A DNA stretch of 64,000 bases, from NCBI GenBank assembly GCA_963662715.1, contig OY759724.1, forward strand, positions 1,178,662 to 1,242,661. Reading direction: 5' to 3'. The position numbers and the translations under genes were made by a program. The DNA is from Candidatus Omnitrophota bacterium (GTDB lineage: Bacteria; Omnitrophota; Gorgyraeia; Zapsychrales; JANLHA01). Shown here piece after piece: positions 1 to 45,000 of this stretch; position 1 is the first letter of the stretch; each line of letters starts with the position of its first letter. The notes under the pieces were generated by a model. The model ran no database searches. It was not told where the DNA came from and saw only the letters and a program-made list of their open reading frames with translations.

Positions 1-3000
1 TATTCTCCCTTAAGGATTCGAACAACCTCATATTAATTTCCCGGTCTTCGAAGAATTTAAAACTGTGCAGCATATAAATGATGTAGATATCCGGGACCAT
101 GGCGGCGGCAAATTCTCTCTTTTCGATAAATTGTGTGTCCCTGGAGCTTATTAATAACGCCCCCAGCCCAGCGGAGAATCCGAACCTGAAGAAATAACGT
201 CTGGACATCTCTGCCTTCCGCGGCATATCGAGAATGGCAGAGAAGGCGCTTCTCTGCTCCGTTGTTCGAGTTTCTTTCTCTTCTTTCACCGGACTGGATG
301 AAGATGACGGACGGGCCTGTTCCGGCCAGATCGGCTGGTCGTTATAATCCCGCACCAACCGGATCGTTGACTGCGCCAGCCGGTAATAAATAGAGTCCGC
401 GGCAAAGACACTGCCCAGTTTAGGCATTTCGGACCCGGTGTAGGCAGAATATTTTTTATTCATCGGCTTAAGCTTTGTCTTCACCGCAGCCTGATAAAGC
501 CGGCTGTCTGCCGACGATCCCTGTAAAATGCTTTCCACATCAATCAGAATCACGACAGCGTTTATAAGATTATGGATATTCTGCATAGCCGCATCGCGGG
601 CCGGATTAACGATATACCAAATATGCAGCAGGAGGCCGATGGCGCCATCCCTGATTTCTCCCTCTCCCCGGCCTAAGATGACGCGCAACAAGAACGGTAA
701 AGCAGCGAACAGATTCTTTCTCAATTCTTCAGAATGCCGAATGTTCTCGATTCTTCTGCCTTGCTGCCAATCTGACAAGCCGGCAAGGTCGGCGAAGTAT
801 TGGCGCATGGTCCCGACTTTTTCTTGCCAGGCAGCGCCTTCTATCTGTTCCAGGCGGTCGGCTACACCCAGTAATTCTGCGCGGGCAGCCTCTGATTGCT
901 TTTCGACTTGATCCTTCAATGCCCGAGCCGCAATAAGTTCGGAAGAGTCCTCCGGCTGACCTTCCCGATCTTGCTCCGGCATTTGAGCCGGCTCAACTGT
1001 CGGAACAACCTCTGTTGTTTCAGGAGAAAGGGCCTGTTCACTCACAAACAATTCTGGAATCTTTAAGGCCACCGTATGATATACGGCTTTGACATTGTTT
1101 TCTGTGCGGTGTTGCATTTGCAGGTGTTCGGCCGGATAGCCGGCGGCATTCAACCCGATCATCATCAACTCGGCTGTCATATCATCTGAATTAAAGTAAA
1201 AAGCTTCTTTTAAAGCCGCGCGGGCTTCTTTACGCAGCCGGGAAATTGTTTCTTTAACTTTCGGTACGGCTCTCTTGCTTTCGTGGTAACGCGCTAAAGT
1301 TCGCTTTTCTTCTGCTTCAATCAGCTCTAATGCTTGAATAACCGAATCAAAACTCTCGTTAAACGCACGATCCAAAGCATCGAGCCATTCCACAAGGACT
1401 TTTAGCGTCCGGCTGCGAACGAATAATTTTCTGAGCAATGCTGTGTTCGCAAATACTTTAATCTTTCTGTAAGTCTTTAAGGTCTTCACACAATGTTTGT
1501 GAATAGAAAACATCGGTTTCTGAACAGTCCGGTTACCAGACCGGTAACGTTCGATTTCAACGTTCATCATCAAGGATTCGGTGGAAATTCGATCTCCGCG
1601 GAGCCTGGCCTGCAGAATAACGGAATGACTGAGAATCAGAATGGAGTCCTCTTCCGCTAATCTATCTCTCAATAAGGCCGCGAAAGACTCCGGAGACCAG
1701 GTTTCGAAGGTATGAACATGTACGATAACACAATCAACATGACCGGCCGTATCGTCTGCGGTGAATTCATCTGCCTGATCATAGGATATGACTTCTGCTT
1801 GTCCCCACAGCATTTTCTGTAGCTGCCAAACCGCTGCCCGGGAATATCCGATCGTTGCGATAACAGGTTTCCCGGCCGTCTCTTTATCAAGCAGATGCCG
1901 CATATAAACATTAGCAAATTCTTCGGTAAAATCTGGCCCGCTGAAGTACCGGTAGCCGGCTGCGGCCGACCGCTTCGCCGTCACGTCTCCAACAGCGAAT
2001 TCCCGGACAATGATGCCGGTCAAATTAACGGCAGGGTTATGAAGAACGGCTTTTTCGATATAAAGGGCATATTCTTCCCGGGCATAATATGCGCCAAAGG
2101 TTGCTTCCGGAGACTCTATGAATATAACCTGCGGCGGGCCGCGGATGACGCTTTCATGTTTAGCCCCGGCTAAGAAATCCAGCGCTTCCGCCATATGCCA
2201 CCTGGCAAATTTCAAATCATCGCCTTCAGCGGAGCGGGTCAGGAGCGCCACCTTGTATTGACGGACCATTTCTTCTTTTTGCTCCGCGGTGTAATCATCG
2301 CTCTTTCGCACAGGGGAGGAAGTCATTTCTACAAACATCCCGTCCTGAACTTTGTAAAGAATTCTCTGCTTCTGCGGCAGGGACGTCCACAGGCGGCCAA
2401 GCATTGTGAGCTCTTGACGCCCATAGGCCAAAACAAATCCTTGCTCCGTCATCATCATGGCCCGTAACCCGGCCCCCTGCACCAAAATAATCTGCGTGGG
2501 GAATCCTCGTCTTCGGCTGAAATGGACAAGGATGTTTTCAATCTCTTCAACCTGTTCCCGCATGCCTTGTTCGTATCCAATGATCAGAACAGGCTTGGCG
2601 TCACCCGCCTGCGTCAACATCTGCATGATGTCTGTAAGACGCTTTCTTTGAACATCATAATAATTGTACGGCCTTCTTCCGGCCCAGTTCTTCCGGTCAG
2701 AGTCCGCATCTTCCGAAGGAATGACCTCTTCCTGAATGATAAACACCCAGGGATTCTGCTGCCCGTCTCCGCGCACAGCATTGTAATCAACACCGTTGAT
2801 CGTAAACGATCCCGTTGACACCGGCCGGCCCAGATTAACGGCCCCGATTCCAATCTGACGGTCTCTGAGCCATGTCCCGTGGATAATATCTTTTCTGGTC
2901 GGGAATATGATCATATCAGCCCCGGCTTTGATAACACGCAGATATTTACCCTCAACCTGCTCGATCGTGCCGGGCACAGCCGCGCGCACAAACAGTTCAG

Positions 3001-3040
3001 CGTCGGAAATCAGCCCCCGAACGTTATCTTCCTCGCTGAC
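1..3040 (-). other. Further SSP-delimited modules of unknown function; the giant ORF runs on past coordinate 1
   Basis: Stop-free translation, codon-checked at 1076 to 1141 and continuing to position 1. Junction motifs at about 2310 (MTSSPV) and about 289 (SSSSSPV). Confidence 0.5.
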
Positions 3041-6000
3041 CGGAGAAGAGCTGCCGCCGTTTCCTTCCGTTTCCTTTTTGACGATATGCTGATTCACAAA
3101 TTCGGCAAACTTCAAGGACGGCCCGACCATTAACAAGTCGCCGGCCAAATCGATATCGCTTTCCGATAAAGCAATCGCAAACCGTTTCGCCCAGATATCT
3201 TCCCCGGTATCAAGTTCATGGAACGCTATCCGGGCGAATTCAGGCCGCAAGAATTCCTTTAAGTCTTCAAGCTCGGACAACAATTCCCAGCCTTCTTTGA
3301 CGGATTTTCTGTTTAACCTTGGCAAATGACGTTTTTCTAATATTTTCCGCCTGATGTGGACAATGTTCTTGACGGACCGGACACCCCTGCCGGCTTTTGT
3401 CGTCACAAAGATATCCTTGGGCGTCAACGTCTCCGGCGGAATTTCCTGAGGAGCGACTTTTCTTCTCTTTTTGGTCTTCTTAACCGGGAGGTCTAATCCC
3501 TTATCTTTCAGGGCCGTCCTGACAGCAAACTCAATGGCGAATTTCAAGACCTGATACGGCATGGTCGGGCGGTTTCCGTGACGGACGTTCGTGTATTTGC
3601 TCATAACAGGCAGGTATTCATTTGTGACAGGAGCCCATCTCAAGAACCGGTCAATAGCGTATCCCCATGGCGTAACAACGATCTTGCCCATGGCTGTGGC
3701 GGCATGCATCGTATAGGTGTCCGGCGTCACGACGACATCGGCAGAATTGATAAGCTTGTTCAACCCTTCCAGATCATGCTGATATGTTTCCATGATCACA
3801 AGCCGGCTATCCGGGCCCTGCACTCTTCTGTAGGATCCGATCTTTCTGTTTATCTCTGACCAGGCCTCTCCGGCGATGTCATGTTTTCGGGCTGTTTCAC
3901 CGCTGTCAACAAGCACGGCCAACCGTCCCCCGTAACCGAGGATAATTTCCGAAACGATCTTGTTCATCAACCCGTAATGGTAGTCTTTTCGTTCAGTAGA
4001 GCTGAAATAATTAAATAAGACAACCACCCGTTCCGGGTAACTCAGCTTCAGGCCGGAAGTCATTGTGTAACGCACGGGCTGATCCTGTCCGACCAAACCT
4101 GCAACTTCGGCATAATGCCTTTCCTGGGAATACACGTTAAGGATATGCGCATGTTCGTCCTTAACCTTGAACAGTTGCGTCCCGTCAAAGTAAATGATAT
4201 GTTTTCCTAAAAGAAGGCTTTCCGCATTCTCCACGACTTCCACGTCCCGGCGAAGGGTGTACATGACAGACCGCTGTTGACTTCTCTGTATAGCCCGGAG
4301 GACTTCGTGGCTGGATCTTTTGTCAATGAGGAATTGGGCTAAAACCAGATCATACTGCTGCTCTTTGAGATACTTTGTCAACTTGCGGTGATGATAGGAA
4401 TAAACAACTTTTTCCTGATCCGTGATATCAAAAGTGAAAAGATCGATCTCGTCAAAACCAAACACACGGCCGGCCCATTTCGTTTCCCGGCCTTTCCAGA
4501 TGGTCTTCTTGTTCGGGTGAGTCACCACCGTTACTTCTTCAATGTTCGGATGAACCGCCAGGATGTTCATAACGCCGCTTTCAATAAGCTCAACACCATA
4601 ATCCCGTTTGGTCGGGCTTAAAATAAGCACGCGTTTTACGGACGGCATAATATCTTTCAGCGGCTGTTCAATCAGCGGCAGCTGTGACAGCTCCACAGGC
4701 GAAGACGCAGAGAAACTCCGTGCTTCTTCCGTTCCCCGGCCATTTTGTGCCGGGCTGAAAACCGATATTGGGCGATATATTACTTCCTGCTGAGAAGGCT
4801 TGTTGAGGCTGCCGGTAGGCGGGCCGCGGTTGATCACAGAGTATTTTAAGGATTCCTGAACATATTGATGCTCATGCCCTGCGCTAAACATCACGTACAG
4901 ATGTTTGATCAAAGCCCATGCTTGGACGGCTGTATAAGCTACGGCCTTTCCGGCTTTCATAAATGAAAGCCCTGTTTGCAGTGTTACGGCCAAGCCGGAA
5001 GCTCCGCCCTGCGGCAATCCCGAATCCGGTTGTTCCTGACCTTTTCTCAACGGCCAGCTTTGGGTCTTCCCGGCAGCTCCCAACCACAGGCCCGGCATGA
5101 ATACCGGAGCATACGGACCGATACCGACCGGGGAACTGACAGGTTTTTGTAGGGCCGGAGCAGCCTCGACCGGGATGTTCACCGCTTCATGACGAATATC
5201 TTTTGCGCTATCCGTCTTATCCGTCTCCTGCCGTAACACCGGCGAAGATCCGTTATTCGAAGAACCATTTTCAGCAGAACTATTAAAGGTCTCATCCTGC
5301 GCCAAACGAGCGGCGGCCTGCCATTCGGCGTCCATCCAAAAATATTGCGCTTGACGGATATCTATCCCGAAACGGCGGATGAGTTCCGCCTTTGATGCCA
5401 ATGTCAACCAATTAAGATTTAACGGCCCGCCAATTTCTTTCTTAACCAATGACTCCAAGACCAAGGTATAAACATCTTCAGCTTTCATGGGATAGCGGTT
5501 CTCTGTCAGCAGATCCCGGGCCTTGAACTCCAGGATAACAGGGGCAAATTTCTCTTCATCCGGTCTGGCTTGCTCCTCGGTAGACATGAAGGAGTTCATC
5601 TCTTTCAAAGAAAGCGTCGGGCGATAGTCATCATCCGAAACAAATTGTCCGGGAACACGGTTCTGCTGCATAGCCCAGAATTCTGCCGTCCTGCGCTGTC
5701 CGGTGACTGAGTTCTCCCATGGATGGCCGGCCTTGGTTCCGTCACCAGCCAACCACGTGCGGACCAGTCCGGCAAGGGTGCCGTGATAAAGGACCAAATC
5801 TTTTTCCTCACTCACAATGGGGGAAGAACTGCTTTGGGCCGAATTAGCAAGGGTCAACTCAACACCTTCAGCGTTATCTTCTATAGTTTTAGCGGATTCA
5901 AGCGGGCTGGAAGACATAAAATGTTTATTATTCAAGAATGCGCGGATTCCATTCACCTGTTTCTTCTGACCTTCATAGAAGAGGATCAGATCCCTTAAAT

Positions 6001-9000
6001 GATCTTTACGTTTAAAGAAATCAATAGCCTGTCTGCTGTAGAACGCCTCGGCTTCGTCATCGTTCATGGATTCAACTGTCCTGTGCGAGCTTGCCACCCA
6101 TCCCTGATACACCTGAATCATCGACTGCAGCAGGGTTGCTCGCAGGTACTGCTGGTTAAATTTCATGGCAGCGGCATACTTGAACACAAATTGTGTCCAC
6201 AATTCCTGCGGCATCTTGAACCCTTCGAAATGATGTTTGGCCAAAGCCTTCAGTTCGGCAAAAATATCCAGCTCCCCGGGCAGGACTGGCTTCAGAACAT
6301 CCTGGTAAATCTCCCAGTATTCTATATATCGGCCTAACTCCTCAATACCGGCAACATCGCTGACATGAAATTCATTCAGCACGACATTCCGGCGGCTGAG
6401 CTCATCCTGCAACCGACTCATCGCCGTCCTGATTCCCTGTTCGATATCTTCTCTTGCCCCGGAATCTTCTCCCTTTAACGCCTTCATCCTGCCCGCCGCT
6501 TCCTTCACTTCAACAACAAGCTGCTTCACCTTGCCGATATCCTGCGCCTTAGCGGCCACTTCCTCTTCGACCTCCATGACCTTCCGGAAATGCTTCACGT
6601 AAGCCTCGTACTTCGCCAGGGCATTATGCCCTAACACATCGGCTTTCATCTCTTTAACCGCAGGATCATTCAGGGTCAATATCTGCTTAATGGTCTTCAC
6701 CCGCCGCCATTTCTTTCCGTTCTCACTCGCCGTCAAGATCGCAGGTTCGGCCACTTCCTGGAACATCAGCTCCAGGGCGCTTAAAATCTGATCACCCAAC
6801 TGATACACTTTGTCGCTGTCGTTATGCCACTTCGCCCAGAAGTTCGCCTGTAAAATCTTCATCGGCCGGGAAATGCCCAGCGGTCTGAACAGATATCTGT
6901 CAAGTCTCGTATCGCTTCCGGTAGATAACGCAGTCAATGTCCATAAAATGTCTATCTGCCACGCTCCGTTAGTGTATATGCCGATCGGGTCGTACAGGAA
7001 GATACGTCTCATCTCCGGCCCGACCCCGAATTCGCCTCCGATCGGCTGCCCGATATCCACGCCAAACATCTGACTAAACGGCCGGGCGATACTGTGGGTG
7101 ATCGTCGCGTCATATTTGCTCCTTGTATAATACGGGGCAACGAAACTCCGCGGACTCAACACCCAGTCCAGCCACACGAGCGCCCTTAACGGATAAATTT
7201 CTTTTCTGGCCGTCCGGATATATTTCCATAATCCCATACGTTTTCTTACGCCTTTCCAGCCCGTCATTAACGGCCATAGATGATCCCGCACCCAGCCCGG
7301 CTGGATACTGCGCAAATCAGCATCATATGTCGCAAACAAACCGTTCTTTCTGCCTAAGTCCTCCATAACGCCCAGACCCAAATGCAGGCTGAAGCCCTTT
7401 CCTCTGACAACTTCCGGTTTCAGCATCACAAGCACCTTCAAATCTTCCGAAAGCTTGCTTAAGCGTTCTTCATATGTCCTCTCGGCCACTCTCGCCGGAT
7501 GTCCTTCCTGCCAGATAATAGCTTTCAGCACATCCTCCAGCCCGGCACCATCCCTTTCCGCCAGCTCTGCCTCGGCTCTCTGCACAAAATCATCCCAGGC
7601 CGCCAGTGTTTTCACGGAGTAGGCCAGCCCTTCCGGATATCCTCGTCCGGCCACGAGGGATTCCTCCAGAGCCTGCAGTGTCGTCTGCCGGTTTCTTTCC
7701 GTCAATATCGCCCCGCGAGCCTCGGCCACCAGCTGTTTATAAAGCTTCATATAATCCTGCAGGAATTTATATCCAAAACTTCTGGCTACCTGGATTCTGG
7801 CTTCCTTGACGAATTGTTTTCGTTTGGCCTTTTGATCGCTCTCCGAGAGTCCGGTCAGCAGGTGTTCCTGCCCCTGAACGATGTCCTGCACAGCTTCTTC
7901 AAACCTCATTCTTTCTTCAACGACCTTCTTCTTATCCCCTTCACGCGTCACCTCCGGCCAATCGCTCATTAACTTGTCGGTGATGGCAACATATGCTTCT
8001 ACCCCTTTCTTCTCCCAATACTCAAACAGCGTGCCCTCATTCATGTTGCTTTCATGTTCCCCGACAGCCATGACAACCGTTCTTTCCCCTCTTAAATACC
8101 GGTCATGCCCCAGGACAATGGCCTCCAAGACATTATCAATGGTATCCCCTTCACTATAGAACGGAACTGTCACAACAACATCCAGGTCTCCCTCCCACGG
8201 CTGCAGCGCTTCCGGAATTTCTTTATCTATCTTCTTTCTCGCCCAGATTCGATATCCGATAATATCCTGCTCCCGGCTGCCGTTGCCGATGATCCGCAAG
8301 AATTGCGCTTCCAGCACCTCTATTAATTCCTTATACCCGGTTCTTTCGCGTTTTATCTTCTCTGTTTGAATGCCGTTGGCTTTCACCTCAACCTGATAAA
8401 TCTCTGCCAAGGCTTTCAGCTCGGCCACGATCTGCCTTAAAACTCCTGGATATTGAAGTCCGATCTCTCCCGCACCGCTCATCATCAGTTCTTCCGTAAT
8501 AGCCCTGACCCTCTCCCGGTTCGACCTCGTGAACGCCTCCCAGGAATCCCTCTGTTTTGTCAGGTCATAAATGGCTTTCAGATCCCCATATCTCCCGATA
8601 ATCGTTTTATCTTTCTCTGTTGATTGATACCGCCCGAAGAAATCATGCGATAAAGAAGAATCCGTTATCGGGCTGGAAACGTATTGTTTTTTCGCTTCTT
8701 GGAACACGGACAGGACTGCCGGTTCACGGCCCCACGTCTCTTCCACCAAAACATCAACCTGCTTACGGACATTTTCACTGATGCGGAAATAATTATGCGC
8801 GACTCTTTGGTAAAGGGCTTTTCTGCTCTGGCCTTTCTTTTGATTTCTTTCAATGAAAGGTTTAATGGTCGTCCCGAAGAATGCGGCCGAATCGGCGTCC
8901 GAGAGAACTCTCAGATCTTCATAATAAGGCTCTTCTGCGGAAACAGCGCCCAGGATAATCTGTCCTTTGAATAGAACGGCATGAACCCCGGCGTCATGAT

Positions 9001-12000
9001 GTCTGATCAGAAACGCCACCTTGGCTCTCTCCTGTTCCGTGAAGATGCCTAACTGCTCGAGAAGTTTATCAACAATGCGGGCGCTGTTAAGCGGATGTGA
9101 CACTTTCTTTCTGATATTTTCATCAAAAGGCGCTTTAAGTTTTTGGACTTTCAATCCCGGCAGATAACGTTCAATGTCATGCCCCATAGCTGCTATCTGC
9201 AAACTGAGATCAGCTTGCGGCTTGATTTTCCTCGCCCATTCTAAGACTTCATCGAAATGACGGAAATCGGTCTGCGCTGTATACTCGTCTTCCGGATCGA
9301 TTTCCCGGTATATCCGCAGGATGAGTTCGCGGATATAACCAAACCGTTTTTCAGATTCAGAAGCGCTTGAGATCCGGTCCCGCTTTATCGCCTTTTGGAT
9401 TTCTGTTACGATCCCGCGGACTTTTTCCGGCAAGAGAACCGGTCTCGTGCTGACGAGTTGTATTTGCCGCTCAGCCTCAAGCATAGCATCCCGGTCTTCC
9501 GTTTCTTTTTCCTGCACCGGCGATGATGAATCTCGTTCCGTGGCATCTAAGATAACCTGCGCTACTGAAAGCAGGTTGGATTGTGCCGTTTTATCTTCTA
9601 TCGCGTTTTCCTTGAAGAACTGAACAACGTGCGGACTGGTGAGTTTGACCTTTTCCGTTAAATGATAACTTCGGAACGAATAGTAAGTAAGATAATCTTG
9701 GATTTCCTGACGGATATCATCATCACTGGCTGTCTGCTGGCGTATCTGGGCAACCATGTTCCGGGCTAATTGTATTTCGTCCTGAATCGGGGAAGAAGGA
9801 TCACGTGGGCTTTGCTTCCTGTCCCTTTCCTGCCATTCATAGAAGGTAACATGATTGATGCCCCAGTTGTTCAGGTAGCGCAACACACGCTGCCGCGGGG
9901 CATGCGTCCGGACCTGCAGGAGGTCTATCACTTCTTCATACAGTTTCACGTCTCCGCCCTTCACCGCCTCTACCACCAAGTCCCGGTTCTCTTCAAATAT
10001 CTTCCGCTCCTGCTCATTCACGATAACGCTGTCCCTCGCCGGCATCAGTTCTTCCGTCGGCTTCAGATGCCGTTCCACAGCGTTGATCACAGGCTTAAGC
10101 TCCCCTTCCGACACCTCGCTCACTTCCGCCACCGTCAGGGCTGACAGCTGCGCCAATCGCGGAACCGTCACGTTAATCCCTTCCTTCTTCAGCCGGATAT
10201 ACGCCGCTATGATACTCTGGGCTTTCGCCGACAATCCTATCGCGTCCCCGTAATACGCCAGGTCCTTCGCCGTCCTGATCGCCTTCTCTGCCACCAGCTC
10301 CTGCAGCACGTCCGCCTTCCTGATCCTTCTTTCCACCGGGCTCGAGCTCAGGTCCATCCGGGAAACCGGAAGTTCTTCACTCGAGAGTTCGACCATCAGG
10401 TCCCAGAAGTCCGGCATGATCCCTTCATAATCCGGATGGTCTGTCTGCAGCGTCTCATACGCCTCTTCCCCGATCTCCCGGAAATCCTTCATATCCTCCG
10501 CATCCAAACGGTTCACGTCAAACCATCTCTGACCTATGTACCCCCGGCTCTTCACGTCATAGCCCAGGATCCCCGCCAAGGTAATCTTCGCCTCTCGCGC
10601 CTTCTTCTCCCCGCGCGGGTCCGCGTTCCACATCCGGCTCAATAACTCTCCGCTCTCCAGCACGCTCTTCGCGTCCTTCGGCGTCAACAATGTCAGATAC
10701 AACCCTTCATTCCCTTCAAAATATTCATGCAGTTTCCTCGCATACTCCCCTTCCTTCGTCTGCGCCTTCCTCTCCGCTTCCGTGTACGAATAGTGCAGGT
10801 GCACATACCCCAGCTCCTGATTCGCCTGCTGGTTCGCAAACATCTGGTTCGCCACATACAGCGGCGACGGATACGCATGCCGCGGCGTCCCAAACAGCTC
10901 GATGTTGATCGGCGCCCGCAGATACTTCACATCCGCCAGCTTCGGCTCCGGCTTGTAATACACGCTTCGTCTGAACATCGTCTCGATCGGCGTTGTCCGC
11001 ACCTTATCCCACAGCTCCTCATCCGTGATCCCGCCCTCCGGTACATTCAACGCCTTGCGCCAGTACAACGCATTTGTTGGCTCATCATACAGGTAATCCA
11101 CAACACTCCGACCTTCCGGCAGCACCAGCTGATGCGTCGGAATCCAGATATACCGACTCGCACTGCTCCGCTCATCAAACGTGAACCGCACCGATGACTG
11201 CAGCTGCAGCCCCAGCTCTTCCCTGCGCTCTTCTCCGAAACCTCTTTCTTTCAACCCGGCATCCGTATAGGTCTTCAGGCCCGGGAACGCGAACGTCCAG
11301 CCCTTGTACCACCAATCCAGCGGCTTGACATCCATCCCCAGGATATGCGGCATGATAAAATGCGTGAACTGGTCACCCTTCTTTTTGGCGATGATATACG
11401 CCCCGAACTGGATCGATTTGGCAAATCCTTTCACCTTGCGGCTGAACACTTCTTCGATCTCATTGAGCCGGTGCGGCCCGTTCCACGGCCGCGGACTAGT
11501 CTCCCTCTCTTCAAGCGGCGAAGAGCCCGATTCTTCACTGCCTCTTTCGATCTGGCCCTGGCTCTCTGCGGACGTCTGACCTTCTTCTTTCTCTAACAGC
11601 CGCCGTGCTTCTTCACTAATCGTAACGGTATCCGTTAATTTTTCTTCCGAACCGGCCTTGGTTTTCTTCCTGGACGATTTCTGATCCTGCTGCGGCCGGC
11701 GGTTATTCTCAGACTTCACAATTGGATGTATCGGCTCAACTTTACGCTCGACCTTTTTCACCGGGCTGGATGTCGCTGAATAATCCTTGATTTGTTCACT
11801 TCCGTAAGATTGATACTCTTCAAAACTAAGCGGTGAAGAGGACATCACTGTCACAGCCCCAACGTTTGATGAAATCTCTGCTGTCCGGCTTTGTGTTTGC
11901 TTCCAGGCCAAATATTCTTCCGGTGTCAGAGGTGAAGATGAGACCATCGTCACCGCGCCCACCGGAGAAGAGACCTTTTCGGCAGCCTGGGCCTGTTTCC

Positions 12001-36000: not shown

Positions 36001-39000
36001 CATTGACCGGGACAGCCGACATGATGGAAACAGCGCCGCGCGTTGTGCTTTCAAATTTCCGGATTGAGCCGGCCGTGGACCGCGCCTGCTCCGCCAGATA
36101 AGCCCGGTATTCTTCCTCGCTTAACGGTGAGGAAGACATATACGTTAAAGCGCCGACCGGTGAAGAGGTTATCTTAACGGCAGATGTTTCCACGGACTGA
36201 GCCGCTTTCCAGGCTGCATATTCTTCAGCCGTGAGCGGTGAAGAACTCATGAGCGTCGAAGCGCCGACCGGAAAATCTTTTTCCGCGGTTCTTATCACCA
36301 AGTTTGGTTCAATCATCCTTAATGTTGACGGGGACTCATTGACGCGAGATGCGTTCTGTTTCCATTGACCGGCTTTCCGGACGAAAGACTGCTCTAACTC
36401 GGTATATTCTCCGAAGAAGGCCTTAACCATCGCGACAAATTGATTCCAAAGCCTTAACAAGGATTCGAGGAACGAGCCCTCCCGCATGATATCAGCGATA
36501 GAAATAACAACGGTTTCTTTTGTCTCCTCCTCATCTTCCACCGGGACAAATCTCAAAGCCACTTCCGCTTTACCTGTTATGTAAGCTTTTGCCAACGGAA
36601 CTTCTGTGATCGATGAAAGGGACAGTCCCCGTTCAGGGACAGGCCTTGTTAATTCTGTTGTATTCTTTTCCAGCGGGCTGGAAGAATCGTTTCTTTGATT
36701 CCGCTCAATAGAGATAGGATCGTCAAGGCCAAATCTATTGAGCATTTGGGATGCCATACGATCACGATATATAGAATTCTTCTGGGCTCTTCGATGCAAT
36801 TTAAATAACAGGATAAATGTACCCAATAATGCTAATATGCCTGGGATCTCAAACATCAACCTTGTATACTGTCCAGAAAAATCAATCTGCTTCAAATCTA
36901 TATCGTATTCTCGAGCAACTTGCTGTGCTGATTCTTCAACCGTCTTCCCTTCAAAGATATTTCTTATAAATTTCCACCCACTCCCTTCCTCCAACTGCTC
37001 AAACTGAATGGCAATCACGGCCCTTTGATAGCCAGTTTCTCTCGGGGTTCCTTGTAAATCTTCTGAAATAATTCGTAGTAATTGATTATAAATTGACTCG
37101 TCAATACCCAATTCAAAATGCCGCAAATAATCTATAGCATAAACAATTTTGTGTTCCACAAATCCGAGACCTCTTGACAGAGGATACAGATTGTGTGCTG
37201 TCTCATGGGCAACCAAAGCCCTGAAAGCTTGCTCCGAAGGAAGATCTTTCTGTCTTAAGAAACCGATGTGATTGTCATTACCATGCCCGTGCGTCACAAA
37301 ATTCTTTGCTATAGGAGATGTTATCTCATGAACCCTATCCCTTTGCTCTTCAGATAAGTATGGAGCGACCTTGGATATTAACGATCTCTGTTCTTCAACG
37401 ACTATGGCAGCTTCCTCTCTATCAAAACCTCTGGACACGAGTCCTTCCACAGAAGATGATGTGTCATTGGCAAAGGTTCGGGAGAATCCGAACAACACCA
37501 TGACAAACGTTGATATCATCAACAGCGTCTTCAAAACCTTCTTAATACCAGAAGAAGACAGTTCCCGTTCAGGGACAGGCCTTGTTAATTCCTTTAAGGA
37601 ACTGCCGGTGGTAACCGCATCCCCTGTCTCACCCTTTAACGCAGTTACCACCGCATATGTTCCTTGTCCCTTCACCCTTTCGTTGTTTGTTGATGAAAGG
37701 GACAGTCCCTGTTCGGGGACAGTCCCTGTTAATTCTGTTAATTCCTGATTCTCTATCGGACTGGAAGACGCGTCTCCAATGATTTTTCCGAGTAATTTTC
37801 TTGCATACGCAATTGCCTCGTCCTGGTCAATAAATTCAGGGCTGGTCGCAATCGTAATAATGGAAGCTCTTCTAGCGAGCTGAGCAAAATAATCCACCGC
37901 CACATCTTTTTTCTGAGCACTTAATCCTCTTAAGACATCAAGATCGACATCCAGCACGTTAAAGTCAAGTTCAGCCGCGTCAATATTTGCCCCTTCTTTG
38001 ATCTTATATCTTAGTTCGTCACGGACCATCAAATGGGCTTTACGGTTTTCTGCGTTGTACATAAAATGCCATTCCGTGAAGAAGCCATTTTCCATAAGCG
38101 GAGCGATAAAGCCCTCGATTCCCATGACATCCTGTGAGTGTCGGTCAATTGTCGCTAAATCTAAATCGGTCTTATAGAACAAATCTTCCTGAGACTCGCG
38201 GTACCGCCGGGTCATCTCGGCATCGGCGTGAGCGTCGATGTGCAGAATTTTGTTGGCCTTTGCCTTGATACGTCCTTCCTGAAGCATGAGCCACCAGAAG
38301 GAATAAGCATAATTATGATAATCCATCACCATCACAACACGGTTATCCGGCAGGGTCATAACCACCTTATTTTTCATGCCAATCGTTTCGATGTGTTTGG
38401 CCGGCAAGTTCGGATCTTTCGGACTGCGGTAAATATCCGGCTGAACATCATCGAGGGTGCCGTTAAAGACCCATCCTTCCGCCTGCCATTTCTGGTCCAC
38501 CGGGCTGGAAGATGCTTCCGGTGCTGCCGGCTTCAGGCTTCCTTCAGGTGTGAAGCTGAATTCTGCCGGAATGAAATCAATATCCTTACGGTTCAGATCG
38601 ACCCGGGAAGCATACCGGGCAGCAAAAGACTCCTGCGTCAGGCTCCACAATTCAACCAGTTCCGGATTCGTCCGGAAGAACTCCGGACCGTTAAAGATCA
38701 CTTCTCCCCGGTTGTTATAAAGAATGGCTTTTTCCAGCTTGGAGCGGGATATCGATATCTGTCCTTTGTACATCCTGACGATCTCCGGCTTATCAAAATA
38801 CACATGGTAGAATTCTTTTCTGATATACTCTTCAATCGTGTTTCTGCCGCCCCGGATGACTTTGGCCGGGATCTTGTTATATTCATCCGTAAAGACAACA
38901 TACTTGGTGTTTTCCTGGCCGTCGGCAAGGTTAATAATGACGTCCTTGGCAAAGAGGAACCCGAATCTGTCCTGTGATGACAATTGTTTGAGCCCTCTCA

Positions 39001-42000
39001 GCGCAAGCCCTTCCGGCATGCCTTTCGTCTGCACCAGGACTTTAAATCCGAGGTTCGTTGCAATATCATGCTCGGCCCAGTCGGAAAGATGGACCAGATC
39101 TTCATCGAGATTCCACAGCCAGTCTCGCTGATACGTGAAGCCTAAGGAATCCAGGCCATGCTGTTCTCCGTGCCGGGCCACATCATAGAAGTTCACCATG
39201 GCGGTTATATTAACCTGGCCTGCCTGCGCATAAATATCCTCTATCGGCAGATGCTCCTCTTTTCCGCTCCAAACTGAATATTCCCGGCCTTCGATATTTT
39301 CTTCAACTTTCCCGCCGTAATCGATAGTGACCACAAACCCTCTCTTCAATGACCTTGATATGATCTGCTGCCATGCCTCAATAGCCGGCTGGACAAAAAC
39401 TTCGGTTCCTTCCGGCAGAGTAACGCCCAAACGGTCCACGTAATCTTCGAGTTGTCTGCTGGACAGTTCGCCGATTTCATCCCGATAAGTGCCGTCCTGC
39501 TCAACCGTGTAGATTTCTTTAAATTCTCCCTCAACGGCTTTCAGCCGATGACCCGGCAGGTCATCGATCAACTCGTTGGACAGGAACACGCCTTCGATAT
39601 CGTGAAGATCTTCTTCGGTGACATCAAGCACGGACTTCTCAATCCAGCGGACTTTACCGGCGAATTCGGCTAATTTTTCTCGCTGATTTGTCCTTAAGTT
39701 AGAACTGAATTCCACAATGACATATTCCAGAGCCTGGAATAACTGCGGCTGATATTCCTTGAGATAGCTCATGATATTCAAGGCATATGTTCCGTTCCCG
39801 GCACCCATCTCCACAACGCTGAACTTGGCCGGCCGGCCCATCTTGTTCCACATTTCGCTAAGCTGATACCCTGTAGAATATCCGAAATATTTCGCTGTTT
39901 TGCGGTCTTCAACATAGGTGTCAAAATCTTTTCCGCGTCCGATCTGCGCGATCCGGCCGTAATATTCTGTCTGGGCCTGCGACATAAACTCGGCAAATGT
40001 TTTTCTGTTCTCAATCGGTGAAGAAGATTTCTTGCCGGAACCTCGATTGCCTTTTAATGTCTTGACCGCGACCATGGATCCGGGGATCCTTTTTTCCAGA
40101 GCGTCGACAATCGTCTGATTCTGGCCTACCGGGGTGAGCACCTTAATCTTCCACTCCGTAAAGCCGTCTTCGATCTCCCGGCTCTCGATCTCTTTGATGG
40201 ACATATTCATCTCGGCGATCCGCTCAGAAACGAGACTTTCCATGCCCGGCCACGGCTCGGTCACAATCGTAATCAGGCGCGGGATCGTCGGCATAGCCTT
40301 AGCGCCCTTAACCTTGAGGATGGCCTGCACATCGTCCTTCATTCCGTTAATCTCTTCAGCCGGGATATCCATATCGATCACCAGGTTATCCCCTTCCACT
40401 TTCTGTTCATGAACGTTGCCGAGATGCTGCGTGATGACCGCCACGATATCTTTAAGCAGACCGATACGGTCATACGGCAGATGCAGGGTCATCTTGCCAT
40501 AGGTCTCTTTTGCCTTGCCTTTTTCGTAATACACGTCAACGACATCAAATTTGACATGTCCTTCTTTAAAGTCCAATTTGGCCAATTTAACATTATCATT
40601 ACCGACAAGCTGGAAGAACTCATCCTGTTCTTCCAGGAGGCCCCAGCGGAGGTACAGGCTGCGCACAAGACCAGCGTTCTGCAAACCTAAGCCTAAGGCC
40701 GACAGGGAATCCCGTCCTTTTTGCGCGGCATTGAAATCAAATTTCTCCAGCAGAAGCACTGTTCTTAGATTCATAGCGTTACGCAGGATAAAGCGGCGGT
40801 TTCTCTCCAGATAACTTCTGCTGTCTCCCGGTTTACCCGGACGGACCGGAGTCAGCGGATTAATGCCAACAATATCCCCGTTCTGCAGCTCATACTTCTC
40901 GCTTCTTATTTGACGGCCCCTGATTTCATAGGCGTCAAAATCATTGCGGATTCTTAAAGTTTCAACCCCTAAATATTCGTCATCCAGTTTATGAATATCT
41001 TTTCTGGCAGCGATGTCCGCCGGGATACTGCCTTTCTTGAGTCTCAAAGTCTTGAAAGAATATTCGTGTCTGCCTTTACGGGTCGGCGGTTCATGGACCT
41101 GGACATAAACCCAGTCGCGAATGGATTCCAGCAAGCGTTCAAAATCAGCATCAAAGTCACCGGCGATATCAACCTGGCGGAAATTAAATTCCTGGTTAGG
41201 ATACATTTCAACCATCTTGTAGAACCAGTGGGCCGCTTTGTTCCCGAAGCGCATAAGATTCAGGTTCGTCTCGTTCATAATCTTAATCTCAAGCGGCACG
41301 CCCTTGACCTTTGTCCATGATTTTGCCGGCAGCATAAGGCCCATATGCAGACTGTCATAACGGTCGAATTTCGCAATCATGCGGTGCTTGGTCCGTTTAG
41401 GAATGATGCTTCCGATGTCGACAAAAATTTCATCGCTATATTCATCAATAAGCGTCAAGGCCTCCCAATAATCCTGGATCTCCCCTTTCACGACCACATG
41501 CAAACCTAACAGGTCATAGAGAGGATCATCCTTGGCCTTCCTCTCCTGCCGTTCGAATTTCTCCGCGATAGAGTAAACGCTCTTGACGCGGGAGCTCATC
41601 GAGAACTTCACTCCGCTTTCTCCAAAAATCTCTTTCAGCCGTTGCTGGAGCTTTCTCTTAACCTCCAGCAACGTCCCCCTGGCTTCTTCATACGTCATGC
41701 CGAGCAGTTCCTCTTCGATCTTCCGCTTCATCTGAACATATTCCTGAGGATGGGCGACCATATAAATTTCATTACGCAGCATGGAGGAGAGATCATCCCG
41801 GCCGAGACGTTCGGCTAACGGTGCGAAAACGTCTTCAACGACCTCTTCAAAATATTTCAATTGTTCCTGCGCCGCCTTATCAATTTTCCTGCCCCGGAAC
41901 TTCTGAATGGTGCTGTAAACTTCCTTGAAGATCTGCGACATGCCCTTAGCGGAACCGGCCAACTGGACGATCATCTCCATATAATTCTGAATGGAGTCGC

Positions 42001-45000
42001 CGCGCTGATACACAGGGATGTCGGTAATGCTCGGGACCCGCGCTAAGCCCTTCTTCACCGCCTTCTTCTTGATCGGCGAAGAGGAATGTTGCTCTCCATA
42101 GAATTCATCCAAAGTTATCATCCTGTCTGTCGGAACCTGTGCCGGCCGCCAGGCCACAATGACAGGAGTCATGATCCCCGGAGTCGTCGGCAGGTAGCCC
42201 CGCAATTCTTCAAAGACGCGTATTTCGGTCAAGCCTATACTGCGCAGATAATCTTTGTAGCGCTGATAACTGGAGACCGCCATGTCATCGTGTTGGATGC
42301 GGACAAAAACCATGGCCGGGCCTTTGACCGGAAGCAGTTCGGGCAACGACCTCTTGATCTCATCAAACACACCTTCGGCAAAGAACGGCTCATTCAAAGT
42401 GATGACGTTGAATTGATGCCGCAATTCTTTCTCAAAACCGGCCTCTTGAGCTGACAGGCCATAAAATTCCGCCTCTCCCTCGTCCGGACTGGTCAACGGG
42501 TCAATGCCGGTCACTCTCTTCAACAGCTCCATAGCTTTGCTGCTGGCGGCTATGGTATTGGCAAACGCATTATCACCCGCTCCGATATCAAGGAGGGCGG
42601 CATCTTTTCCAACATATTGTTCGATCAACCTTAAGAACGTTGTGTCTCCTTGGGTCCACTCTTCGCCGCTTAACCGGGCCTCAGCAAGAACCCCTTGCAT
42701 CCTCTGATCAAAACTTGCGTTCCCTGAGGAGCGGTTGAGCATCGGAGAACTGACAGCGCCCGTTTGAGTTTCACTAGAAGCAATAGAATCGTCTCCTGAA
42801 GCAATTTTTGCTTCAATTGTCCGGGTCATCGTTTCAACAAAATATTCATTCATATCCAACGGAGTTGAGCTCATCAACGTGGAAGCGCCGACGCTGCTCT
42901 TGACAACTGACTTGATACTGCTGCTGACGGTATCGGCTTCTTTGCTTGCCAGGTAAGCCGCATATTCTTCGGCGCTTAACGGCGCAGAGCTCATTAACGT
43001 GGAAGCGCCGACGGTACTCTTCGCTGCTTCCTTGATACTGCTGCTGACGGTATCGGCTTCTTTGCTCGCCAGGTAAGCCGCATATTCTTCGGCGCTTAAT
43101 GGCGAAGAGCTCATTAACGTGGAAGCGCCAACCGATGTTTTTCTCTCAACCGGCTGAACCTGGACTTCATCAATCAATCGTAAGCTGCTTCCCTGGGCCA
43201 CCCGGGCAGCCGGGGTAACAACCTTGGTGTAGACATGGCTCAGAGCCCCGAACGCTCTCATAAGGAACCTCACCAGGAAGTCCAACAAGAACCTCAACAG
43301 CATGGCCATTCTCTTCATCAGGGATGCCATGGTGATATAAATCACTTCCTTTTGCTCAACTGTTTCATCGACAGCCGGGAAGACCAGGCTTATCTCGGCA
43401 TTATCCCGAACCGCGTCTTTTCTGCCCGGGACAATGATCAGGGCTTTCTGCCAGGCAGCAAGGCCTTCATAGGCACGGCGGCCGGCTGAGAGAAGACCGG
43501 TTTCCACCACGTGGCTCTGATGAGAAGAAACCGGCGAAGAAACTTCTTCCAGGACCGGGGAAGAAGAAGCCTTAGGAGCAACCTTGTAAGGTGTGAGCGT
43601 CCAGATAACAGCATTAATTCTTTCCTCATTACCATAAACTAATTTCAGCAATTCTTTTTCTTCATCCGTGAAGCTGATCTTTCCGGCTAATTCTTTGATT
43701 AGAGCATCCCTTTTCTTTGCGCTGGTTTCGGCGGCCGTCGCAATAATTTCCTCTAAATCCTGGGCCAAGGCAGCTGAATTCTCTTTGATCTTCTTCTCAA
43801 TCAAGGCAAGCGCCTCTTCCTTCTTGGCTGCCAGGAAGGCTTCTGTCAGAGCCTTCTCCAACATCTTTTTGGCCTCCTCTTCATCATTACCGTTTAGATC
43901 CTCTAAGGCAGTTCTCAATTCTGCGCTTAAGCGGTTCTGCCAGATATCGTCCTTCTTTTCCGCGATATCTGATTGATTCTCAATCTTCGCTTTTCTCAAC
44001 AATTCATCCGCATCCAATAATTTCTCTACGGCTTTCTCCTGCTCATCTTTATTCTGCTTCTCCATTTCCCCGTACAATGCTTGTCTGGCCTTAGCTCTGT
44101 CATTATCGCGGGTATCTTCCAAAGCTGCCCGGAAGGTCTTCGGAGATTTATACCAGACATCCTCTGTGACTACGTCCGTGACACCGCCCTTGGCTTTCCG
44201 GACTCCACGGAATTTATCCAAAAGACGCTTTAATAATTTCTCCGCCATCTTTTTCAACCCTGTTTTCTTGTTGTCCAGAACTGTTTTCTGTTGATCCTTT
44301 TGGGCTTTATCAATGTCAGCAAACAGCTTTTCTTTGAATTTATCCACATTGTTTTCACTCACATCCAGCAGGGCCTGTCTCAGTTCACGATCCAAATCAA
44401 AGACTTCCAACACTGTCCTGCTGACAAATTCTTTCTTAAGCTGGGAAATTTTGTCTCCTTTTTCCGTCTTTGCTATTCTTGCCCGGGTTTCGCGCAGAGC
44501 TTCAACAACCTCCGGATTTCGGCTGATGGCTTTGATATATCCGTCATAGTTCTTATCTTCTATGACCTTTTGAGCAGCCTCTTCGGCTTTCTTCTTAATC
44601 TGCCCGAAGAGTTTTTCTGCGGCCTTCTGGTGAGTTACGTTGCTCAACTCTCTACGAACCTGGGATAACAGTATCTCCGAAATGCTCTCGACATATGAAT
44701 CCGAACTGACAAACAGTCTGTCAACGCTTTTCAGTAATGCATCTTCCATGCAACCGTCCTTGGCCTTTTCAAAAATCCCTTCTATTTCTGCCAACAATTT
44801 ATATTCTTCAGAATCTCTGTCAACGGAATCAAAGGCCTTTCGGATAACAGCAATAAATTCATCCGCTGTCGTTCTGGCTTCCATGTATTCGAGTAGTATC
44901 GTAATATTACTGAATAACTGTTCTTTAACCGTGCCGGCATAAATCGGCCCAAATTTAATTCTAATCTGCCTTAACCATTCTTCTCTCTTATTGGTTTCTA

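Follow-up and report, generated by a model that had tools for sequence, protein, structure and literature searches.

The 64,000-nt stretch of DNA analysed here (the window; contig OY759724.1 of assembly GCA_963662715.1, positions 1,178,662 to 1,242,661) comes from a Candidatus Omnitrophota bacterium and carries part of a giant gene for a multi-enzyme protein. A six-frame scan, in which stop codons were checked under genetic codes 1, 4, 6, 11, and 25, revealed a single stop-free frame on the minus strand (frame 0), with 21,333 codons and both ends open. The runner-up among all other frames was a stretch of 348 aa on the plus strand (52832-53875), antisense to the giant open reading frame (ORF); nothing else supports it, and it most likely arises from the purine-rich character of the coding strand. 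The GC content of the giant frame by codon position is 0.56/0.37/0.57, its amino acid composition is ordinary, and the GC skew is negative across the whole window, which together fit a real coding sequence. The window lies inside one giant Omnitrophota gene, whose product has at least 21,333 aa. An initial annotation of this DNA had placed one polypeptide at 1..43600; a single polypeptide was indeed found, and it is larger than proposed, as that range corresponds to aa ~6801-21333, the C-terminal two-thirds of the visible protein. No Rfam family was detected on either strand of the window, and a catalytic-RNA reading is not supported. Residues are numbered from the right end of the window, aa i being window 64000-3i+1 .. 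64000-3(i-1). The main parts of the protein, including its transmembrane (TM) segments, are as follows.

2..64000, minus strand: stop-free frame of 21,333 codons, internal fragment of a giant gene
63548..63865, minus strand (aa 46-151): SLT lytic transglycosylase domain (PF01464, 9e-17)
62363..62638, minus strand (aa 455-546): M23/LytM-like domain (PF01551, 1e-4, below the gathering score)
50846..62362, minus strand: dark region of ~3,800 aa, without TM segment, cysteine, or junction motif
45689..50845, minus strand: polytopic membrane region, whose TM clusters (aa 4386-4973 and 5716-6104) enclose the GT48 domain
46808-48736, minus strand (aa 5089-5731): FKS-like GT48 β-1,3-glucan synthase catalytic domain (Pfam Glucan_synthase PF02364, 4e-68)
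2..43564, minus strand (aa 6813 to at least 21333): enzyme array of 57 intervals, 38 of them of at least 120 aa

Domains were identified by a Pfam scan of overlapping 1,250-aa chunks at E<=1e-3, with gaps rescanned at E<=1 and with NCBIfam, and the protein was also compared with PDB sequences. A phmmer search of 5,000-aa pieces against the PDB added little to the Pfam results and gave no match for aa 16801-21333. The head of the protein begins with the SLT domain, in which the catalytic ES...GATGIMQ and AGYNAG motifs can be read intact from the sequence. The M23-like domain that follows is degenerate, as both metal-binding motifs (HxxxD and HxH) are missing. A degenerate M23 domain beside an intact SLT domain resembles the inactive LytM domains that act as regulators, not peptidases. 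The relative P0159 has a strong M23 match (5e-29) together with PG_binding_1, and its M23 domain is probably active. The dark region gave no Pfam match at E<=1e-3, and at E<=1 only noise of coiled-coil type. It is collinear with the relative locus L004 at 32-44% identity, and it is predicted to lie outside the cytoplasm.

The membrane region contains a domain of a family known mainly from fungi and plants. The GT48 domain matched the yeast FKS1 structure 7xe4 (2.5e-33), and the NQDxYLEE, HYGHPDF, NEDI, and GKGR[DE] motifs are conserved relative to FKS1. Homology to FKS1, the signature motifs, and TM clusters on both flanks were thus all found, and the catalytic domain is 61% identical in L004. 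The architecture as a whole is kept in L004, where the dark region and GT48 (32-61% identity) are followed by RelA and MidA cassettes. A glucan synthase is not mentioned in the main texts of West-Roberts et al. (2023) and Nielsen and Lui (2026), which describe giant proteins of this phylum.

The array downstream of the membrane core is made of enzyme-sized units. The initial annotation had counted more than 30 modules, which agrees with the 38 inter-junction intervals of at least 120 aa, and had named 18 of them. The units found in the array, among them S-adenosylmethionine (SAM) enzymes, a phosphoribosyltransferase (PRTase), and glycosyltransferases (GTs), are listed here in protein order.

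42752..43540, minus strand (aa 6821-7083): module c, copy 1
40025..42082, minus strand (aa 7307-7992): RelA/SpoT-synthetase-TGS-ACT (Pfam RelA_SpoT 2.5e-10; NCBIfam TIGR00691 9e-13; TGS/ACT by PDB alignment to B. subtilis Rel 6yxa; ACT_4 4e-5)
38510..40024, minus strand (aa 7993-8497): MidA/NDUFAF7-like SAM methyltransferase (PF02636 4e-51; PDB 4f3n, 1zkd, 5ztz; VVEMGAGNG)
37766..38509, minus strand (aa 8498-8745): arginase-fold unit, UPF0489/peptide-arginase-like (PF12640 3e-9; NF052474 3e-9)
36683..37765, minus strand (aa 8746-9106): TM-HExxH-TM hairpin (TM at aa 8822 and 9048; HETAH at aa 8932)
35951-36682, minus strand: module c, copy 2
32102..35950, minus strand (aa 9351-10633): long interval with an unsupported CCA-like stretch, a PRTase (aa 9962-10061; Pribosyltran 6e-7; divergent PRPP loop), and a HAD-IIB phosphatase (aa 10208-10413; 6e-4; DxDxT as DYDGT, and GDNYD, intact)
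31259..32101, minus strand (aa 10634-10914): Nudix (PF00293 3e-10; perfect Nudix box GHPRIGEAGIKAIQREFQEELGV)
29528..31258, minus strand (aa 10915-11491): two-cassette unit, copy 1 (96-99% amino acid identity to copy 2)
26114..28003, minus strand (aa 12000-12629): GT4, mannosylglucosylglycerate-synthase-like (NF041101 3.7e-37; PF00534; EX7E as EAFGNGLIE)
25340..26113, minus strand (aa 12630-12887): Pol-beta/MNT-type nucleotidyltransferase (PF18765 E=0.01; GS-x9-DID)
23933..25339, minus strand (aa 12888-13164 and 13165-13356): two cassettes without family, conserved in the relative P0156
22637..23932, minus strand (aa 13357-13788): radical SAM (PF04055 9e-6; CNRGCLIC at aa 13404-13411)
21083..22636, minus strand (aa 13789-14306): KdtA/WaaA-like GT30 (PF04413 9e-19; NF004388 8e-37; PDB 2xci)
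19034..20302, minus strand (aa 14567-14989): histidine kinase (HATPase_c PF02518 1e-12; THDLRS, NLISNA, DNGQG, and GLGL)
12650..19033, minus strand (aa 14990-17117): nine to ten cassettes with no confident family
11525-12649, minus strand: module c, copy 3
9797-11524, minus strand (aa 17493-18068): two-cassette unit, copy 2 (98.2% DNA identity to copy 1 over 1,380 nt)
8678..9526, minus strand (aa 18159-18441): HD-type unit, DUF4202-like (PF13875 1.5e-4; GHD and HHD motifs)
3050..4705, minus strand (aa 19766-20317): GT9 heptosyltransferase-like (PF01075 5e-6, above the gathering score)

Thirteen of the 18 named modules have profile support, and the order given for them was kept. They include RelA/SpoT-TGS-ACT, the MidA-like methyltransferase, the arginase fold, PRTase, HAD phosphatase, Nudix, GT4, KdtA-like GT30, GT9, and the histidine kinase, whose H, N, G1, and G2 boxes are all present. 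The radical SAM call also holds, with an exact CxxxCxxC and a profile score below the Pfam gathering score, as does the TM-anchored HExxH, which is the only HExxH of the whole protein and lies between two TM helices. An M48-like module is a weak annotated match in L004. Three calls are weak: the MNT-like nucleotidyltransferase (GS-x9-DID intact), the HD hydrolase (HD motifs present), and an alpha/beta hydrolase (DUF7379, 0.0065). Two calls had no support: the proposed first SAM methyltransferase had no profile match, and the CCA-type nucleotidyltransferase has a YGWMVRDLLRG stretch that resembles GGxVRDxLLG, with neither a DxD nor a profile match. The second GHKL ATPase has DxGxG alone and no profile match.

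Failing profiles or degenerate catalytic residues, named beforehand as the outcome that would speak against enzymatic modules, were not the rule. Profile searches bear out most calls, and SLT, HAD, Nudix, GT4, the nucleotidyltransferase, radical SAM, the histidine kinase, and the HD unit have kept their catalytic residues. At least 15 distinct families occur in the window, none of them more than twice. The KdtA/GT30 module covers essentially the full family profile (positions 12-421 of 425; 196-421 for NF004388). The RelA module is without the HD hydrolase catalytic part and keeps the catalytic Asp and Glu, with EVQIRT changed to EIKIMN. The two cassettes at aa 12888-13164 and 13165-13356 matched neither Pfam nor NCBIfam, and single-sequence structure prediction of three cassettes reached a predicted local distance difference test score (pLDDT) of 33, too poor for a fold search. 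Within the array, aa 15219-15547 and 16168-16493 are a paralogue pair (78% identical).

The conserved junctions reported by the initial annotation could be defined and quantified as a peptide motif, (S)SSP[V/I/L]. SSP[V/I/L] was observed 56 times against ~0.8 expected from composition, always within aa 6813-21235, and no copy occurs in aa 1-6800. Nearly all SSPx tetrapeptides (56/57) end in V, I, or L, and the preceding residue is Ser in 27/56. The motif lies at the following positions (aa).

First part: 6813 6821 6965 7307 7993 8498 8746 9107 9253 9279 9290 9351 10634 10915
Second part: 11308 11492 11570 11778 12000 12630 12888 13165 13357 13789 14307 14567 14990 15219
Third part: 15548 15779 16168 16494 16734 16805 16876 16929 17118 17280 17312 17344 17355 17388
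Fourth part: 17411 17493 17886 18069 18159 18442 19364 19392 19585 19622 19766 20318 20561 21235

The motif is encoded by 43 different 12-mers in which TCN and AGY serine codons are mixed, so the conservation acts at the peptide level, and a DNA-level junction such as a recombination site or repeat is ruled out. The enrichment is not a result of internal duplications either, since after masking them SSP remained the top tripeptide (47 vs 2.0 expected) and SSPV the top tetrapeptide (29 vs 0.15). Internal translation starts at the junctions are also ruled out, the fourth codon often being GTC, GTT, or ATT, with no Met after it. The density of 38.5 motifs per 10,000 aa compares with 0.8 in 114 ordinary RelA-family proteins (~48-fold). 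The motif falls inside 0/19 profile-matched domains (P about 5e-5 by random placement), the recognised enzymes each stand alone in one interval of 220-690 aa, and the linker upstream of the motif is hydrophilic and variable. Several multi-domain intervals (aa 9351-10633, 18442-19363) contain no internal motif.

The same motif is enriched in other giant proteins. P0019 has 16 copies (0.2 expected), P0033 has 17 (0.3 expected), P0154 has 14, and P0153 and P0156 have 12 each; P0047, P0034, P0008, and P0007 are also enriched. In P0019, P0033, and P0156, every Pfam domain falls within a single inter-motif interval. The motif is conserved across relatives from 60% down to ~25% identity, and at orthologous junctions it does not change, in contrast to the variable linkers upstream. 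It is not enriched in the Omnitrophota giants P0006, P0012, P0030, and P0032, and it therefore marks a sub-lineage of Omnitrophota giants. P0006 has another recurrent element of ~85 aa between its enzyme modules (4 copies, aa 28, 2397, 3164, and 4225), which reads ...LEQLLGRAPPELSSWNL..TTDL.LTQGNVAACDI...YHELISHI.., and P0032 has an analogous element at aa 1384 and 4704. These elements may be alternative junction or processing domains.

Relatives of the protein were found in Omnitrophota, which is indirect evidence for its origin. The closest proteins, P0001 and P0002, are partial ORFs from Candidatus Omnitrophota metagenome-assembled genomes (58% identity; best matches 58-62%), and a genome-collection contig (L001) carries an open frame of 4,772 codons that the contig end truncates. 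An exhaustive HMMER search with aa 6807-7993 returned 486 proteins, many of them fragments of 2,000-8,000 aa, and all the relatives among them that bear a name are Omnitrophota. The sole genome-collection match is labelled 'uncultured Planctomycetales', of the same Planctomycetes-Verrucomicrobia-Chlamydiae (PVC) superphylum. No relatives were found in the viral collection, and the metagenome scan returned only an unrelated ordinary RelA gene (L002; 39% GC, no motif). In the locus of P0033 (L003), the downstream region 24419-34396 encodes PilZ, PilZ, GH94, SBP_bac_1, two BPD_transp_1, and GH2; this PilZ/sugar ABC transporter context is the downstream context shown in Fig. 7C of West-Roberts et al. 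(2023).

All sequences were split at the motif and the pieces compared. Cassette alignments between relatives run from the first to the last residue. The radical-SAM cassette has 432 aa both here and in P0156 (1318-1749; 61% identity), and the MidA cassette has 505 aa here and in L001, with 57-68% identity in L001, P0001, and P0047. The nucleotidyltransferase cassette is 48% identical to P0156 131-387, the cassettes aa 12888-13164 and 13165-13356 are 43% and 62% identical to their P0156 counterparts, and the HD-type cassette is 25% identical to P0019 1-266. A word-indexed protein search gave no match for aa 12630-14567 or for aa 12888-13356, although P0156 is 43-62% identical there; this negative reflects the prefilter of the search, not a true lack of relatives. 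The GT4 cassette of the window is missing from P0156 between otherwise collinear neighbours, while P0156 has an extra 429-aa cassette before radical SAM, and behind radical SAM it has other cassettes than the window, namely a methyltransferase and a GT5 starch synthase. P0001 is without the arginase-fold cassette at the orthologous position. L001 is without the TM-HExxH-TM cassette, and the two flanking junction sequences are merged there; in the window, the junctions that flank this cassette carry similar sequence. The duplicated two-cassette stretch has a junction motif as its exact start and stops ~10 aa short of the following one, and its copies lie 19.7 kb apart. A short 'KVERKVEP' cassette lies after copy 1 and also before copy 2. 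A recent duplication within the gene is the likelier origin of the repeat, an assembly problem the less likely one. The check for module shuffling, gain, or loss proposed by the initial annotation was thus positive, with the junctions as breakpoints: whole cassettes are gained, lost, and duplicated at the junctions. Comparison of relatives thus gives direct evidence that the unit on which evolution acts is the whole cassette.

Such repeats also bear on whether the long frame could be an artefact, be it a chimera made in assembly or a sequence, non-coding or decaying, that is open by chance. The 98%-identical 1.7-kb internal repeat and the tandem repeats might mislead an assembler, and in L004 (ENA ERZ25039459 contig_38025, locus 1-24902) the orthologous gene is broken into nine ORFs, with a frame change at each boundary and overlapping ends. 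These two features speak against reading the L004 ORFs as separate genes, and the splitting probably reflects frameshift errors of a long-read assembly or gene decay, most likely the former. One of the L004 ORFs is annotated as 11,609 aa. L004 warns that giant genes are under-called in such assemblies. For the window itself, a chance stop-free run of 21,333 codons is impossible, (61/64)^21333 being effectively zero, and the codon-position GC pattern is that of a coding sequence. More than 15 significant, collinear, full-length domain matches have intact catalytic motifs, orthologous cassettes are 43-68% identical across independent assemblies, and the two copies of the repeat differ at 25 scattered positions, which marks them as distinct loci. 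An artefact is extremely improbable.

Internal repeats, found by chunked self-comparison of the protein, also revealed a non-enzymatic element, module c, whose three copies share 35-47% identity by self-BLAST. Its parts are a β-hairpin (LRFVPVEDEEE), a long amphipathic helix whose hydrophobic moment (0.57-0.66) reaches or exceeds the 99th percentile, and PVGASTLMSSSPLTAEEYAAWK-type repeats of 32-40 aa, which have TRF periods of 96 and 120 nt and are rich in the junction motif. An AF2 model built from a 3-row alignment reached a pLDDT of 44, with the helix alone moderately confident. Module c is present in every close relative (L001, P0001, P0008, P0019, P0034, and P0156), and it may be an in-plane membrane tether or a docking hub. 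A further tandem repeat of 71 aa (213 nt; 2.7 copies, 98% identity) occupies window 13256-13820 (aa ~16730-16930). Its copies each start with EVSSPV and contain NNERVKGQGTYTVAAVLLKGETGDA. A lone, diverged copy is found at aa 8770-8795, and P0034 has similar units.

That a tetrapeptide is strictly conserved at enzyme starts suggests a recognition site for cleavage, modification, or docking. In a bolder and less likely reading, SSP[V/I/L] would be a functional processing signal that divides the giants of a sub-lineage into autonomous enzyme cassettes, and at which a polyprotein might be cut at ~40-55 sites or modified, for example O-glycosylated by its own GT modules. A more specific version is that a dedicated protease, which another part of the gene or of the genome would encode, cuts the product at or near (S)SSP[V/I/L] and releases ~40 enzymes, so that the giant ORF would co-express a pathway set from one start codon. 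The motif stands at the start of every enzyme equivalent, and full-length profiles (KdtA, MidA, radical SAM) fit single intervals. The motif is under peptide-level selection, it is conserved across relatives that share ~25% identity, it sits in hydrophilic, variable linkers, and cassette order is free to change, all of which count in favour of cleavage. Cleavage of such giants was suspected by West-Roberts et al. (2023), with 'no information about cleavage points', and C39 and S8 domains were reported near the N-termini of such giants. Several findings make a cleaved polyprotein doubtful. No protease domain of matching topology was found in the window, where the only HExxH is predicted to face outward; the motifs 11-33 aa apart in the module c repeats would give useless tiny peptides; and several multi-domain intervals contain no internal motif. 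We also know of no protease specificity that matches SSP|V. Among the papers searched, none links Omnitrophota with polyproteins.

If the junctions do serve in processing, they would be the first concrete 'cleavage points' for Omnitrophota giants and would explain the free shuffling, insertion, and duplication of cassettes, and cleavage or modification there would be an unusual gene-expression strategy for bacteria. If they do not, the window stays an ordinary, if striking, member of a published class. The junction rule splits the array into gene-sized cassettes, gives explicit candidate processing sites that can be sought in metaproteomes, and provides natural cut points for structure prediction and expression.

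The topology of the protein was predicted from hydropathy and the positive-inside rule (K/R flanks). Thirteen TM-like segments have KD (Kyte-Doolittle) >1.7 and about 20 have KD>1.4, in three places, and the strong hydrophobic segments occur only at aa 4386-4973, 5716-6104, 8822, and 9048. No segment with KD>1.7 follows aa 9066, a stretch of more than 12,000 aa in which the weaker peaks lie inside globular domains. The K/R counts are 3 (N side) and 7 (C side) at TM 4386, 4/1 at TM 8822, and 2/6 at TM 9048. This bias predicts the head (aa <4386) and the HExxH loop to be outside and both array stretches inside. In cryo-EM structures of FKS1 the catalytic domain is cytoplasmic, and radical SAM enzymes, PRTases, Nudix hydrolases, RelA, histidine kinases, and GTs that use nucleoside diphosphate sugars act on cytoplasmic substrates. 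A cytoplasmic placement of the array agrees with an extracytoplasmic SLT/LytM pair, with the catalytic side of FKS1, and with the substrates of the array enzymes. Nielsen and Lui (2026; 10.64898/2026.06.07.730766) likewise read giants that have only TM anchors as lying on the cytoplasmic face.

The protein is also strongly depleted in cysteine, with 15 in 21,333 residues (0.07%) vs 0.85% in ordinary RelA homologues. Cysteine-free runs reach 6,794, 5,807, and 4,676 aa (P<1e-28 even at a 0.5% background). The 15 residues are at aa 4677, 6417, 13212, 13404, 13408, 13411, 13534, 13828, 13905, 14420, 14462, 14748, 14949, 20757, and 20837; ten of them fall in aa 13212-14949, three of which make up the radical-SAM CxxxCxxC, kept exact. 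Relatives share the depletion (1/4,772 in L001; 1/3,029, 0/1,634, and 0/1,974 in pieces of L004). Such extreme depletion is a usual trait of proteins that are unfolded while they pass through membranes, and cytoplasmic enzymes do not typically show it. Cysteine avoidance together with a retained iron-sulfur (Fe-S) motif constrains models of folding and export.

This depletion is one ground for regarding the string as an effector array, MARTX-like or contact-dependent, that would be threaded out of a predator so that its enzymes act on or inside prey, for example by alarmone-type nucleotide depletion, Nudix or HD hydrolysis, or glycosylation of prey targets. A peptidoglycan-lytic SLT domain is part of the head, secreted toxins are known among RelA/SpoT-family enzymes (e.g., Tas1), and V. 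archaeovorus and similar Omnitrophota are epibiotic predators in which the giant protein is up-regulated on prey contact. West-Roberts et al. (2023; 10.1101/2023.11.21.568195) predicted most domains of such giants to be extracellular. Against export, the window contains no RTX repeats, CPD/Peptidase_C80, or SecA_DEAD. Only one GGxGxD occurs in 21,333 aa, with no RTX or hemolysin-type Pfam match, the true termini lying beyond the window; Peptidase_C80/CPD had no Pfam match in the window, and none of the 15 cysteines is in a recognisable protease context. Membership of the MARTX family is therefore not supported, with RTX repeats and the cysteine protease domain (CPD) missing within the window. 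KdtA, GT9, GT4, MidA, HAD-IIB, and the histidine kinase are a housekeeping envelope and sugar repertoire, not toxins, a radical-SAM Fe-S enzyme would be hard to export, and the positive-inside rule puts the array in the cytoplasm of the producer. The C-terminus, where a secretion signal would sit, lies outside the window. We consider an exported effector array unlikely. A nonribosomal peptide synthetase or polyketide synthase (NRPS/PKS) megasynthase is also not supported, as no PP-binding, condensation/adenylation, or KS/AT Pfam family was found in any chunk.

The reading we favour, with moderate confidence, is that an FKS-like glucan synthase and an outward lytic head precede a membrane-tethered enzyme array that faces the cytoplasm. 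What the protein is can be stated with high confidence; how it would work is evenly balanced, and we infer its topology, its functioning as an uncut string, and its physiological role. The outward head would comprise the intact SLT domain, the degenerate LytM/M23 domain, and ~3,800 aa free of TM segments, followed by a polytopic membrane core that holds the GT48 glucan synthase. The ~40 enzyme cassettes would lie on the cytoplasmic face, with the TM-HExxH-TM hairpin as a second membrane pin and the amphipathic helices of the three module c elements possibly as further pins. Each cassette would be a complete enzyme equivalent that starts with (S)SSP[V/I/L] after a variable hydrophilic linker. 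One translation product would then place nucleotide, sugar-phosphate, glycosyl-transfer, and signalling enzymes at the membrane in a fixed 1:1 ratio, with a polysaccharide synthase at their side and a wall-cutting head above them, and might serve an ultra-small, host-dependent cell as a factory for its envelope or contact sites. The array would evolve by insertion, deletion, and duplication of cassettes at the junctions. The initial annotation had offered two readings, of which the membrane-anchored biosynthetic factory fits best and the MARTX-like array lacks its defining features within the window. The factory fits best because the array follows a polytopic GT48 region, has one TM hairpin, and is then TM-free for more than 12,000 aa, and because its enzymes need cytoplasmic nucleotide, sugar-nucleotide, SAM, and Fe-S chemistry.

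Several points weigh against this reading. The topology depends on hydropathy and the positive-inside rule alone, and how many TM helices make up the two clusters is uncertain. The extracellular prediction of West-Roberts et al. (2023) points the other way, and some multi-enzyme giants were placed outside by Nielsen and Lui (2026; 10.64898/2026.06.07.730766). The topology predictions published for such giants contradict one another. The cysteine depletion favours an exported or injected array. A strict tetrapeptide at every cassette start exceeds what a passive linker needs, and the string may not stay intact. About half of the cassettes matched no family, and catalytic motifs are divergent in RelA (EIKIMN), in the PRTase loop, and in M23.

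Giant Omnitrophota genes are among the longest ORFs known, and the central questions about them are whether the product is one chain or cut, on which side of the membrane its domains lie, and how it evolves. The window adds a well-resolved example and three leads: the junction rule, the evolution by whole cassettes, and the cysteine avoidance with its retained Fe-S motif. The type of the Archaeovorins is a 39,678-aa protein of Ca. Velamenicoccus archaeovorus LiM (Kizina et al., 2022, cited in 10.1101/2023.11.21.568195), and giant ORFs occur in most Velamenicoccia (Seymour et al., 2023). The set of West-Roberts et al. (2023; 10.1101/2023.11.21.568195) comprises genes >90 kb and proteins >30,000 aa with GTs, methyltransferases, peptidases, SAM enzymes, and NUDIX, SLT being less common; a locus like that of a type II secretion system lies upstream, and PilZ and a sugar ABC transporter lie downstream. 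HEAT/TPR and GT5 glycogen-synthase are the most frequent Archaeovorin domains, and SecA_DEAD/SecA preprotein-binding is a feature of 'most' full-length giants (10.1101/2023.11.21.568195). Nielsen and Lui (2026; 10.64898/2026.06.07.730766) defined a membrane-anchored 'multi-enzyme metabolic cluster' class, whose longest members have 80-147 kAA (thousand amino acids). The closest and all named distant relatives of the protein are Omnitrophota and its repertoire matches the Archaeovorin and multi-enzyme definitions; therefore, it is a new example of this published class, not a new category. The class and the N-terminal peptidoglycan-lytic head had both been missed in the initial annotation.

The protein shares with the Archaeovorins an Omnitrophota origin, an ORF of tens of kb, numerous TM helices, an SLT domain, large unannotated stretches, and low sequence conservation. 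Of the Archaeovorin enzymes, GT4, GT9, GT30, and GT48, MidA, M23-like and HExxH units, radical SAM, and NUDIX are present, besides HATPase_c and HAD. SecA_DEAD/SecA had no match in 21,333 aa at E<=1e-3 or in relaxed scans and may be encoded beyond the window, HEAT, TPR, GT5, and C39/S8 had no Pfam match within the window, and a strict glycosyl hydrolase was not found in the window, where the SLT lytic transglycosylase is present. Motif-bearing relatives do have TPR (P0019 and P0033) and Glyco_transf_5 (P0156). The visible protein has at least 21,333 aa, compared with >30,000 aa in the published set. GT48, RelA/SpoT-TGS-ACT, and MidA units are not mentioned, and the junction motif and cysteine depletion are not described, in the West-Roberts main text. 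As in the multi-enzyme class of Nielsen and Lui, many Pfam families tile one polypeptide and none dominates, the TM clusters provide the membrane anchor, and co-occurrence modules 1 (methyltransferase, HATPase_c, HAD, HD) and 2 (GT1 family, radical SAM, sugar metabolism) are both here; the longest members have 80-147 kAA vs the at least 21,333 aa visible here. A linker or junction motif, cleavage, and cysteine statistics are not reported in the text of Nielsen and Lui. The junction rule, the cassette-level rearrangements, the cysteine avoidance, and the GT48 core thus appear to be undescribed details of the class.

Compared with the fungal and plant FKS/callose synthases (GT48), the window encodes a homologous catalytic core with TM clusters flanking it as in FKS1. 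It differs from them in being embedded in a bacterial giant protein with a predicted glucan synthase activity, and the GT48 profile is covered only at positions 3-509 of 819. Like the MARTX toxins, the protein is a very large polypeptide of a cell-attacking bacterium with unrelated enzyme modules between conserved junctions. Its differences from MARTX are the lack, in the window, of RTX glycine-rich repeats, a cysteine protease domain, and evidence of a type I secretion signal, an array at least three times longer, and modules of housekeeping type in place of known effectors. With viral and eukaryotic polyproteins and multienzyme fusions (picornavirus, AROM, CAD), it shares complete enzymes in one ORF and a short conserved peptide at unit boundaries, as at cleavage sites, cleavage being putative here; it differs in that no embedded protease was found in the window. 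Known bacterial fusions are far exceeded here in unit number (~40) and functional heterogeneity.

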